A DNA stretch of 64,000 nt, taken from positions 16,537 through 80,536 of IMG/VR virus record IMGVR_UViG_3300033121_001921. The stretch is one strand, 5' to 3'. The notes beneath the pieces are model-generated. The model searched no databases, was not told where the DNA came from, and worked only from the letters and a program-made list of their open reading frames with translations. Below are positions 28,433-40,423 of this stretch, in pieces (position 1 is the first letter of the stretch; every line of letters begins with the position of its first letter). The translations under genes were made by a program, and so were the position numbers. This stretch comes from a virus (Duplodnaviria; Caudoviricetes).

Positions 28433-29350
28433 ATGTTAATTAGCGAGTCTGTATTTACTCCAACGAACAATAGAAATTATAAAAAATTCAAATCACTAGG
28501 ATATGAATTTGATATTGGTGATGTGATATTGGTAAGTATCAATCATCTTTCTACAGGATCAAAATCTATTGTTGTTGTACAGTGTGATGTTTGTGGGTCT
28601 AAAATGGATTTAAAATATTCCATGTATGTAAAGAATACTAAAAAGTATGGCATTTATACATGTAATGGTCGATGCTCCAAAATAAAATTTAAAAAAACTT
28701 AGAATTTCGGTTCAGAGACTCCGATGCAAAATCCCGATATAAGAAATAAAGTTGGTGAGTATTTCCTATCTAAATATGGAGTTAGACACCCATCAATGCT
28801 TTTAGAATTTGAAAAGAAAAAACAAGACACAAATATAGAAAGATACGGAGTTCCTCACCAAATGCATATATCAGATAATATCCTAAAAATAAAAAGCTCC
28901 AAGTTAGAAAAATACGGGAATGAAAATTATAATAATATCAAAAAGAATAAAGAGACTTGCTTGGAACGATATGGTGTTAATAATGTAATGAAAGTTGAAG
29001 AGATATTTAACAGGCAAAAATCATCTAGCTTTAGTAAAAACGAAATAAATAATTTAATATATCAAAGTACTTATGAGCTAGACTTCATAAAAAAATGTCT
29101 GAGTATGAACATTAGAATAGAAAACGGGCCATCTATTGATTACGCATTTGATGGCAAAGATCATAAATATTATTCAGATTTCTACTTGCCAGAATATAAT
29201 TTAGTGTGTGAGATCAAGTCTAATTATATATACAACATGGAAGTTGATATAAATGAACGTAAAAAAGCATCTTCGATAAAAAATGGATATAATTTCTTAT
29301 TTATAATTGATAAGAACTATACTGAATTTGAAAAAATATTGATTAGATAA
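28433..29350 (+). pseudogene. KYG-repeat PD-(D/E)XK homing endonuclease interrupted by an in-frame TAG (28700-28702)
   Basis: CDVC...CNGRC, KYG repeats, YYSDFYLPEYNLVCEIKS; the two track ORFs share a frame. Confidence 0.7.
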
Positions 29351-37665: not shown

Positions 37666-38007
37666 ATGGAGTTACAATATGTTTTTGTCTACGGCGTTTT
37701 TAGAGACGCTTATAATAATCTACTAGGTGAGTCTGTTTATTGTTGCAATTCATTTGTTTATGGTAAAATGTATAGAGTTAGTGAATTTTATCCAGGATTT
37801 AAGAGATCCGATTGTAGTGATCGAGTTTACGGTGATGTTTATCTAATAGATCCATCAATTTTAGAAACATTAGATGAATTTGAAGGCGAAGAATACGAGA
37901 GAAAGAAAATATGGACCTCAATGGGAGAGGAATGTTGGATATATGAATATAAATATCCAATAGATCAATTCGAGGAAATTACAGCAGGTGATTGGATTTT
38001 GAGATAA
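37666..38007 (+). CDS. gamma-glutamylcyclotransferase (AIG2-like) family protein
   Basis: VFVYGVFR, VYGDVY, LDEFEGEEYER, CWIY. Confidence 0.88.
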   Translation: MELQYVFVYGVFRDAYNNLLGESVYCCNSFVYGKMYRVSEFYPGFKRSDCSDRVYGDVYLIDPSILETLDEFEGEEYERKKIWTSMGEECWIYEYKYPIDQFEEITAGDWILR

Positions 38008-38056: not shown

Positions 38057-38803
38057 CTAAGGAGTATGATGATTCTTTCTGAGTATCTCTTTCTCGTAAT
38101 ACTCTTCAAATCCAGATAAAAGATCATTCATACCTGGAGACTTATTTAGTCCTATGATTTCATCTACCAATCCAAATTCTAAAGCTTCTTGTGAATTAAA
38201 CCACTTGTCCCATCTAGATGATTCTAACATTTCATCAAATGTTTTTCCACAATTTTTAGCCAGTAATTTGAATAGAATATAATTGTATTTTTCGGCCTCT
38301 AGTTGCCCAATTCTTGTTGATTGCACATTACCCTCTATCCCATGCGATACCATATGAGTCATAATTTTAGAGAAAATCAATGAAGATCTTTTTCCTTTAG
38401 CCCCAGATGATAATAAAATTGATCCCATTGACGCACACATTCCTATATTTATAGTTGCAACGTCCGAAGAGATATAATTCATTAGATCCACAATTCCTAA
38501 GCCATGTAGTACAGAACCACCAGGTGAATTTATATGGAGCGTTATATCCTTTTTAGGATCAACCGAATCTAGAAAAAGCAATTGAGCTTGAATAATATCA
38601 GACATATGCTGGTTTACAACTCCTGAAACCCAAATTATTCTATCTCTAAGAAGTCTACTGAATACATCCATCTGAGTTACTCTTAATTCTCTTTCTTCTA
38701 AAATGTATGGTGTTAATCCATTTTCAATATGATAGTTTATTGAATCACCATTTATATTGAGATGTCTGGTTGCATATTTGCAAAATTCTTTTGAATTGTC
38801 CAT
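38057..38803 (-). CDS. clpP: ATP-dependent Clp protease proteolytic subunit
   Basis: MDVFSRLLRDRII, INSPGGSV, MCASMGS (Ser), MTH (His), EALEFGLVD. Confidence 0.95.
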   Translation of the reverse strand: MDNSKEFCKYATRHLNINGDSINYHIENGLTPYILEERELRVTQMDVFSRLLRDRIIWVSGVVNQHMSDIIQAQLLFLDSVDPKKDITLHINSPGGSVLHGLGIVDLMNYISSDVATINIGMCASMGSILLSSGAKGKRSSLIFSKIMTHMVSHGIEGNVQSTRIGQLEAEKYNYILFKLLAKNCGKTFDEMLESSRWDKWFNSQEALEFGLVDEIIGLNKSPGMNDLLSGFEEYYEKEILRKNHHTP

Positions 38804-38881
38804 TATAAATTTATTTGTTCATTCTATCTTTTATGAAATGGTTTGTTTAGAAGCAATTTTCTTGGAAAGATATACGATAAA

Positions 38882-39037
38882 TCATATTCTTTGTTTTAAT
38901 AAATTAATTATACTTTTTACATCCCCAGACTCAACCTCATGAAATTGAATATTATTTTCTCTTATCAAATTGTAATAAGAATTATCTACTTCTTTTGCTT
39001 GTTCTAAATTTTGAACCCTACCATCCGGTCTGTAGGA
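38882..39037 (-). pseudogene. 3' fragment of a NadR/AAA_28-like P-loop protein
   Basis: YRPDGRVQNLEQAKEVDNSYYNLIRENNIQFHEV resembles the C-terminus of 42502-43059; no N-terminal P-loop. Confidence 0.5.
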
Positions 39038-39075
39038 GGCGCAAAAACAAATCAAAAAAATATAATATATAAGTC

Positions 39076-39417
39076 ATGAAATAGATTGATACAAAATTAA
39101 TTATTATCACAAGGGAAGATATATCCGATGGATATAAAGTTGTTCAATCCGCCCATTCTATTGCAGATTTTGCTCACCAACATCCTGAAAAATTTAATGA
39201 TTGGAAAAATACATCCAATTCTATAATCTGCCTCTCTTGTAAGTCAGAAGAACATCTTTTAGATCTCCATAAAAAGTGGAGTAAACGGACTCCGTGTTCA
39301 ATATTTTTTGAACCCGATATAGATCAGTTTACTTCACTTTGTCTTTTTGGTGCCCCTGAAATAAGAAAATCATTTTCAAATTTACCCCTAGCTCTAAAAA
39401 AACAAATAACCCAATGA
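39076..39417 (+). CDS. Pth2-like peptidyl-tRNA hydrolase with an in-frame TAG at codon 3
   Basis: ATG AAA TAG ATT..., then KLIIITREDISDGYKVVQSAHSIADF, SIICL, FFEPDI, LPL; not in the ORF track. Confidence 0.75.
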
Positions 39418-39490
39418 ATAGACTCGCCGTAGTAGATGAAGTTAGATTACAAAGAATTCAATATCGTTTAAAATATGTTATATATACTTT

Positions 39491-40423
39491 ATGAAAAATA
39501 ACATTGAATTAAAAAATTATAACAAAAGTGGAATCTATAAAATAGAAAACATTGAAAATGGATTTGTTTATATAGGAAGTGCATACAATTTTTATAACAG
39601 ATATAGAGTTCATAAATCAAGATTATCCAGAGGAAAACATGATAATTATCATTTACAAAAATCATATAATAAATATGGTGTTGAAAAATTTGAATTCAGT
39701 ATTGTTGAAATAGTAGACAATATTGATAATATCTATGATATAGAAAAATTTTACATAAATAAGTTCTTTGGTACTAAATGTTATAATATTAACACCGAAA
39801 CACAACCCCACATTAATCTCATTTCTTGGAATGATTCTAGAGAAAAAGAATTTTCTTTAATTTCCCCAGATGGAGAATTAAGATTTTTTAAGGGGTATGT
39901 AAGAGCCGGAAAAGAATTGGGAATACTACCATCAGGAATAAGACAAGTTGTAATTGGTAAAATAAAAAGCTATAAGGGATGGAGAACAATAGATAATAAA
40001 GACTATGATTATAAAAATTATAGAAAAATAAAAAATAAAGGGGCTAAATTACATGATATTAAATTATTATCTCCAAGCGGAGAAATAATTGGCCCAATAT
40101 TTAATATTGAAGAATTTGCAAGATTAAATAACATACATCCATCGATAATATTTAATATTATCGCAAAAAGAACAAGATATTCTAATGGATGGTCTCTTTA
40201 CGAAGGAAGTATCAAGAAACCGATAGAAAAAAATGCAAAATTATATGATATTTGCCTTATTTCACCATCAGGTGAAGTATTTGATGGTATAGAAAATCTT
40301 GCAAAATTTTGCAGAGAAAACAATGTCCAAATAGCAAGCATAAGAAAGCTTATAAAAGGAACCATCAAAAGAAAATCTTATAAAGGATGGAAATTAAAAG
40401 AAAATCACCATGTCAAAAATTGA
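39491..40423 (+). CDS. GIY-YIG homing endonuclease with three C-terminal LISPxG repeats
   Basis: SGIYKIEN, YIGSA, HDNYHLQKSYNKYG; repeats LISPDG/LLSPSG/LISPSG. Confidence 0.88.
   Translation: MKNNIELKNYNKSGIYKIENIENGFVYIGSAYNFYNRYRVHKSRLSRGKHDNYHLQKSYNKYGVEKFEFSIVEIVDNIDNIYDIEKFYINKFFGTKCYNINTETQPHINLISWNDSREKEFSLISPDGELRFFKGYVRAGKELGILPSGIRQVVIGKIKSYKGWRTIDNKDYDYKNYRKIKNKGAKLHDIKLLSPSGEIIGPIFNIEEFARLNNIHPSIIFNIIAKRTRYSNGWSLYEGSIKKPIEKNAKLYDICLISPSGEVFDGIENLAKFCRENNVQIASIRKLIKGTIKRKSYKGWKLKENHHVKN

Follow-up and report, generated by a model that had tools for sequence, protein, structure and literature searches.

The PTH2-like gene and its surroundings

The DNA analysed here (hereafter the window) covers 64 kb of a linear virus contig that is 80.5 kb long and has a GC content of 31%. 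CheckV estimated the completeness of this contig at approximately 28%, and no terminal repeats were found on it. Encoded on its plus strand is a short gene that starts with an ATG (39076-39078), followed by AAA as the second codon (39079-39081), an in-frame amber codon, TAG, as the third (39082-39084), and then a PTH2-like domain of 110 codons (39085-39414), the first of which is ATT (39085-39087), before a TGA stop codon (39415-39417). Direct reading of the sequence from 39070 gave TAA GTC ATG AAA TAG ATT, such that an in-frame TAA (39070-39072) lies two codons upstream of the ATG, which is the sole in-frame start; none of the 110 codons 3' of the TAG is an ATG, GTG or TTG. The arrangement reported in an earlier note on this DNA, namely ATG AAA TAG ATT followed by an intact 110-codon Pth2-like open reading frame without another start, was confirmed by the sequence, as was the end of the frame at 39417, but the gene start placed there at 39064 merely adds leader to a coding sequence that begins at 39076.

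The ATG is preceded on the plus strand by an A-rich leader (39044-39075) that ends in the TAA GTC described above, and that is approximately 90% identical to the leader of the closest relative. No Shine-Dalgarno sequence was present in this leader, no significant RNA structure was predicted around the leader and the TAG (fold energy -2.4 kcal/mol, z-score 0), and a scan for sigma-70 promoters and terminators returned no excess over shuffled sequences. Both the +1 and -1 frames are closed within 3-6 codons of the TAG, leaving the zero frame alone to join the ATG to the domain. Frameshifting and hopping over the TAG were considered and ruled out, since both other frames close at once. Directly 3' of the gene lies a GIY-YIG homing endonuclease gene (39491-40423, plus strand); the matching gap in the closest relative is smaller by approximately 420 bases, suggestive of a mobile insertion.

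The closest relative with respect to the PTH2-like gene was IMG/VR contig G001 (locus L090), with 84% protein identity. The next relatives were the huge phages described by Al-Shayeb et al., with genomes of 460-735 kb (LR745206 and LR756500 to LR756504), and the cultured Tenacibaculum phage pT24, and distant relatives were found in Lak phages and mycobacteriophages. A megablast search with the gene region against a phage collection returned no match. Near-identical DNA, searched for with positions 38600-39900, was found in wastewater, activated-sludge, anaerobic-digester and river metagenomes from at least nine studies, dating from 2016 to 2025.

The earlier note had also raised the presence of the TAG in reads. 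The nine bases ATG AAA TAG (39076-39084) were unchanged in DNA contigs from the runs of two further activated-sludge studies, one from 2016 and one from 2024. None of the contigs from RNA libraries (metatranscriptomes) spans the gene start, and they are thus uninformative as to expression. The frame 3' of the TAG had a dN/dS of 0.11 relative to the closest relative, similar to that of a neighbouring gene and indicative of purifying selection. Since the codon is the same in other runs and conserved in homologues (see below), and since purifying selection acts on the frame that follows, the TAG is genuine, and neither a sequencing error nor a chance occurrence.

Relationship of the product to Pth2

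PTH2 is the peptidyl-tRNA hydrolase fold of archaea and eukaryotes. The product of the gene scored 28 bits on the Pfam PTH2 family (PF01981), above the cut-off of 23 bits (E-value 2.8e-6), over residues 4-68 only, and the pT24 homologue matched with 32 bits across the entire domain. A profile built from 30 homologues retrieved Pth2 chains from the PDB, including 24bt_A (E-value 1.7e-5) and 2zv3_A (E-value 5.5e-4). An AlphaFold2 model of the product had a mean pLDDT of 72 with a poorly predicted N-terminus, and the nine top Foldseek matches to it were all Pth2 structures (2zv3, 1wn2, 3erj, 1q7s and 1rzw), these matches being weak (E-values 0.025-0.25, TM-score approximately 0.4).

In the profile alignments, the G-K motif of 24bt_A and 2zv3_A was aligned with G16-Y17 of the product, a pair that is invariant in the 30 homologues. 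The lysine of this motif, Lys18 in Sulfolobus Pth2, is reportedly the catalytic residue of these enzymes (Fromant et al. 2005); an invariant tyrosine occupies its position in all 30 homologues, such that a catalytic lysine typical of PTH2 is lacking there. An E-P-D motif (D78) and T83 were also invariant among the homologues. Because of the tyrosine at the lysine position, the product is referred to here as PTH2-like and no activity is claimed for it; judged from its sequence, whether it acts as an enzyme is uncertain.

Conservation of the early amber codon and its context

An IMG/VR scan using the 30-sequence alignment yielded 80 loci, which were pooled with other homologues to give 71 distinct start contexts. 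The suspicion that homologues might have a sense codon in place of the TAG, as expected of a private nonsense mutation, was not borne out; an early in-frame TAG was found in 70 of the 71 contexts, though these pooled counts are not phylogenetically independent. In 69 of the 71, an in-frame ATG lies 0-7 codons 5' of the TAG; the two are most often separated by a single codon (41 of the 69), less often by two codons (13) or three (seven). This pattern was present in LR745206, LR756502, LR756504, LR756500, LR756501 and pT24, in addition to the IMG/VR loci, and every close or middle-distance homologue that was read (the LR-series, pT24, L090 and L091) opened with an ATG, reached the TAG after one or two codons and continued with ATT or ATA. 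The sole TAG-less context of the 71, locus L174, has no CUA-anticodon tRNA gene nearby; the homologue of Lak phages has no early TAG.

The codon immediately 3' of the TAG was ATT in 48 of the 69 contexts, GTA in nine, ATA in seven, and AAC, AGC, ACA or AAA in the other five, with the result that the first base after the TAG was a purine in all 69. In genome-wide usage, ATT accounts for 38-57% of isoleucine codons and GTA for 25-27% of valine codons. Since the bias towards ATT and GTA is far above codon usage and the purine is invariant, selection acts on the context of the TAG at the nucleotide level. A purine directly after UAG is reported to favour amber suppression in E. coli (Bossi 1983; Miller and Albertini 1983). 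The codon preceding the TAG encodes lysine in only 25 of the 69 contexts.

Three homologues, those of LR756501 and of two IMG/VR loci, carry a second in-frame TAG further downstream, which in two of the three lies within the domain. The second TAG of LR756501 falls in an alignment column that holds E, D, V or T in other homologues, and the conserved domain continues beyond it. These additional codons indicate that amber read-through, one of the two routes named in the earlier note, is needed for the full-length protein, given that the domain goes on behind the second TAG in LR756501.

Proteins of this family in public databases either start with M-x-Q-I or have lost their 5' part, such that they begin at an internal ATG, GTG or TTG. 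The Q in such starts is probably the TAG as translated by gene callers set to genetic code 15, a reading that draws on the DNA of the 80 IMG/VR loci. The GenBank pT24 coding sequence (BPT24_235) begins 45 codons late. The amber codon is thereby hidden in public databases, with gene callers either truncating the gene, as in pT24, or silently rendering the TAG as glutamine. In several homologues, a C-terminal domain of approximately 190 residues is joined to the amber-preceded PTH2-like domain (L005, corresponding to pT24 194083-195036, L154, L156-L161 and L168). This extension contains an H-D-L-G-K motif in pT24, and no Pfam match was found for it in the fused homologues.

CUA-anticodon tRNA genes in related phages

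A search for tRNA genes with a CUA anticodon, suggested by the earlier note, found them in relatives, usually adjoining the gene, and found none on the contig itself. Using ARAGORN, a CUA tRNA gene was called within 3 kb of the gene in 36 of approximately 80 IMG/VR loci, and in up to 42 with laxer settings, always on the same strand as the gene (loci were oriented on the gene). CUA was by far the commonest anticodon near the gene (42 of 161 ARAGORN calls), and the CUA tRNA was the only tRNA called in approximately 18 of the loci; about half of the loci had no CUA tRNA within 3 kb. The second commonest anticodon within 3 kb was CAA (16-18 calls). ARAGORN labels these genes 'tRNA-Pyl', its default name for any CUA anticodon.

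A CUA tRNA was found in all six of the large genomes checked. Phage pT24, which has four tRNA genes in total, encodes one 2.5 kb upstream of the PTH2-like gene on the same strand, annotated as tRNA-Sup. LR756501 has two in tandem 2.1 kb downstream of the gene and LR756500 has one 0.8 kb downstream. The CUA tRNA lies at least 100 kb from the gene in LR745206, LR756502 and LR756504. The first two of these share a tRNA-Sec-like CUA tRNA (LR745206 507344-507421, L075:7340-7419; LR756502 609678-609762, in L204), missed by ARAGORN at default settings, that has stems of 8 bp (acceptor), 6 bp (D) and 4 bp (T), and in which CUA replaces the UCA anticodon. Where the two copies differ in the acceptor stem and the 6-bp D stem, compensatory changes support both stems. 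The tRNA of LR756504 (c281045-281120, approximately 100 kb from the gene) has the same loop, NTTCTAAC, and was called by ARAGORN as having a four-base anticodon. Quadruplet decoding through this 8-base loop was rejected, as a reading of UAGA would leave the frame of the domain.

The CUA tRNAs were very diverse, some forming ordinary cloverleaves and others being tRNA-Sec-like, and comparison with 300 other phage tRNAs revealed no consistent nearest isoacceptor. The tRNA islands of several huge phages (L009, L032, L034 and others) also contain many Lys, Asn, Arg, Glu and Thr tRNAs of 80-91 bases; these isoacceptors normally lack a long variable arm, and the extra length may represent inserts or introns.

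A truncated tRNA-like gene in the window

In the closest relative, an intact tRNA-like gene (L090:2870-2950) precedes the PTH2-like gene, folding into a cloverleaf that ends 36 bases 5' of the ATG and has the anticodon loop CUCUAAA and the T-loop GGTTCGAATCC. Its D arm is odd, and its Rfam tRNA score of 24.4 bits is below the cut-off of 29. Of this gene, the window shares only CTGTAGGAGGCGCA; the remnant, 14 bases on the plus strand (39030-39043), was recognised by synteny and consists of the last 12 bases plus CA, after which the shared leader follows. Nucleotide synteny between the window and contig G001 begins exactly at 39030, inside the tRNA-like gene, and the block upstream, which encodes a ClpP protein (38057-38803, minus strand) and a GGACT protein (37666-38007), is not shared with that contig; we therefore place a recombination breakpoint within the tRNA-like gene.

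No tRNA signal was detected at an E-value of 10 or below between positions 38000 and 40000 of the window, and no tRNA of any kind was detected on the 80.5-kb contig, which represents approximately 28% of the genome. As the contig is devoid of tRNA genes, a decoder of the TAG would either be encoded in the unsampled 72% or so of the genome or have been lost.

Genetic code of the contig and its relatives

Treating TAG as a sense codon raised the coverage by open reading frames in the contig (from 0.903 to 0.941), in pT24 (from 0.915 to 0.927) and in the whole of LR745206 (from 0.919 to 0.935). These gains of 1-4 points were similar to those obtained with TGA as sense; for the contig, they were 3.8 and 2.6 points, respectively. 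A gain in coding density of 5-10% has been applied as the requirement for a recoding call (PMC10879173, a study of theta ribozymes, after Borges et al.), and the gain of the contig lies below it. Of the 104 long open reading frames on the contig, 12 end in TAG, that of ClpP among them, as do 7-12% of those across these genomes. Back-up stop codons were not enriched behind genes that end in TAG (median distance of 8.5 codons, compared with 7 for TAA). In pT24, splits of two long open stretches were caused by TAG in five cases, compared with 23 by TAA and 14 by TGA.

The pattern of an ATG, a few codons, a TAG and a long frame with no start codon nearby was essentially unique to this gene in each of the three genomes searched (the contig, pT24 and LR745206). 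The genome sampled by the contig otherwise uses the standard code and the TAG feature is specific to the gene. One further gene of the window, a homing-endonuclease-like gene (28433-29350, plus strand), is split by a single in-frame TAG (28700-28702); its LR756501 homologue aligns continuously across this position, where it has an asparagine. This TAG would be compatible either with an active suppressor or with a selfish gene in decay or a recent pseudogene.

A putative amber gate on the PTH2-like gene

Considered together, we think it probable that synthesis of the PTH2-like protein depends on a phage-encoded amber-suppressor tRNA and that the TAG acts as a translational gate on this single gene, a reading drawn from comparative sequence analysis. 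Translation would start at the ATG at 39076 and would have to pass the UAG at codon 3, which the phage tRNA(CUA) would decode, with protein output roughly proportional to suppressor activity. We infer here that the CUA tRNA is expressed and charged and that it reads UAG. When the suppressor is not available, only a dipeptide would be released from the gene in the window (a di- to octapeptide across the family) and nothing would be wasted; the early position of the codon suits a gate for this very reason. As TAG still ends 7-12% of the long open reading frames in these genomes, and back-up stops are not in excess, a strong general suppressor should be costly, which speaks for suppression that is weak, brief or dependent on context. 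In the phage of the window, the decoder would be situated in the approximately 72% of the genome that lies off the contig, the adjoining copy having been cut by a rearrangement. The purpose of such a gate can only be guessed at, but it may couple an activity that recycles tRNAs or ribosomes to how long, or how strongly, stop codons are suppressed.

A rival mechanism, built on the model of the earlier note, treats ATG-AAA-TAG as a minigene similar to lambda bar on which termination or peptidyl-tRNA drop-off is sensed, the enzyme being made without a dedicated tRNA, through re-initiation at the AUU or through near-cognate read-through induced by stress. AUU can be used as a weak start codon, as in infC, and the predominance of ATT after the TAG (48 of 69), a synonymous bias well past codon usage, agrees with such re-initiation, as do the very short mini-ORF of most lineages and the absence of tRNA genes from the contig. 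Yet nine lineages have GTA at this position, which is not a bacterial start codon, and another five have AAC, AGC, ACA or AAA, and re-initiation would be of no help to the three homologues in which a further in-frame TAG follows, in two of them within the domain itself; re-initiation at the ATT is therefore disfavoured. The Met-Lys minigene and the starvation for tRNA-Lys that the note connected with it are likewise at odds with the alignment, in which lysine precedes the TAG in just 25 of the 69 contexts and the spacing varies between 0 and 7 codons. The purine that invariably follows the UAG is, from E. coli genetics, a context that favours suppression, and the linkage of the gene with CUA tRNAs, left unexplained by a minigene, points to a dedicated decoder in place of read-through triggered by stress. 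We regard the minigene explanation as quite improbable, although autoregulation by the enzyme itself may still occur.

Only a little less doubtful is a genuine gate in the family whose decoder has been lost from the phage of the window, so that the PTH2-like gene is silent or barely expressed and is decaying. Synteny with the closest relative breaks inside the tRNA-like gene, of which 14 bases are left, and 80.5 kb lack any tRNA, both as expected from such a loss. Against it, the frame is intact with a dN/dS of 0.11, a value that mostly reflects older history, and the same sequence was still present in runs from 2016 to 2025; moreover, the contig covers just 28% or so of the genome, the CUA tRNA is at least 100 kb away in LR745206, LR756502 and LR756504, and a second gene of the window also has an in-frame TAG. 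That second gene could instead be taken to mean that the whole phage uses genetic code 15, as do Lak and crAss-like phages, with the early TAG being one of many; TAG-recoded Lak phages are indeed among the relatives, and code-15 gene callers probably gave the M-x-Q-I proteins in the databases. This is very unlikely given a standard-code coverage of 90.3%, a gain of 3.8 points where 5-10% is required, the 12 of 104 long open reading frames that end in TAG (that of ClpP included), and the restriction of the early-TAG pattern to the PTH2-like gene, the Lak homologue of which is itself without it. The view of the gene as a pseudogene, or of the TAG as a sequencing error or private nonsense mutation, has only the stop codon itself in its favour; it is refuted by conservation of the TAG in 70 of 71 contexts, by its identity in other runs and by the dN/dS of 0.11, and we give it practically no weight.

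An extension of the amber-gate reading is that the tRNA(CUA) and the gated PTH2-like gene form a feedback module, a homeostat of stop-codon suppression in phages that use the standard code. The enzyme would then act on the aminoacyl or peptidyl form of the suppressor tRNA, or on by-products of read-through, and its synthesis through UAG would in turn set or limit the strength of UAG reading in the infected cell. We put this forward as a speculation that is unlikely to hold; if true, such a module might be a seed of whole-genome TAG recoding.

Suppressor tRNAs in phages are usually discussed in connection with a change of code across the whole genome, and dozens of distantly related large phages with a normal code keep one amber codon at the very beginning of a translation-related gene, typically close to a tRNA gene with the matching anticodon. 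Should the coupling work as proposed, it would represent a minimal genetic switch of natural origin, operated by suppression of a stop codon, and a plausible intermediate towards recoded genomes. The idea of a gate is directly testable, since both phage pT24 and the Tenacibaculum that it infects are cultured.

Comparison with known systems

A full-text literature search, in which few subscription journals were covered, found no published account that connects PTH2 or peptidyl-tRNA hydrolase with an amber codon or suppressor tRNA in phages. PTH2 genes of jumbo phages have been described (Iyer et al. 2021, PMC7824862), and these concern the same protein family and class of phage, also with tRNA genes nearby; PTH2 was considered there a possible ribosome-rescue factor, and neither an amber codon nor a suppressor tRNA was mentioned.

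Several systems resemble the proposed gate in part. The lambda bar minigenes, a known source of the peptidyl-tRNA drop-off that Pth must clear, likewise consist of one or two codons and a stop, as does the ATG AAA TAG of the window. A bar minigene stands alone, whereas the mini-ORF described here is in frame with a conserved downstream domain, has 0-7 codons between its ATG and the TAG and a variable last sense codon at which lysine is not conserved, and is linked to a tRNA. In prfB, which encodes release factor 2, an early in-frame stop similarly ties the output of a translation-factor gene to the decoding of that stop, but the codon is UGA, it is passed by a +1 frameshift and the product acts on its own gating codon; in the PTH2-like gene the frame is unchanged. 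The read-through that yields the A1 protein of Q-beta or retroviral gag-pol resembles the gate in that a stop codon decoded in the zero frame gives a functional product. In those cases a complete protein is extended at low frequency by host tRNAs, whereas here the stop precedes the entire protein and a virus-encoded tRNA is linked to it.

The closest parallels are Lak, crAss-like and other phages that use genetic code 15, with TAG read as glutamine (Borges et al., bioRxiv 10.1101/2021.08.26.457843; PMC9523058; PMC10879173), in which a phage-borne tRNA reads UAG and in-frame UAG codons have been proposed to delay certain genes until that tRNA is active. Low-GC genomes are a further common feature, and the relatives point to hosts among the Bacteroidota. 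In contrast to the present case, tens to hundreds of genes in code-15 phages are recoded, chiefly those for structure and lysis, and their coding density drops sharply when read in the standard code. The preprint by Borges et al. (10.1101/2021.08.26.457843) never mentions a hydrolase, and regards suppressor tRNAs in standard-code phages only as possible forerunners of a code change. Conserved across very distant phages, the putative gate described here occurs under the standard code and concerns one translation-related gene with one TAG at a fixed place close to its start, and is best read as a new form of phage stop-codon recoding, that is, an amber gate specific to a single gene and position and linked to a suppressor tRNA.
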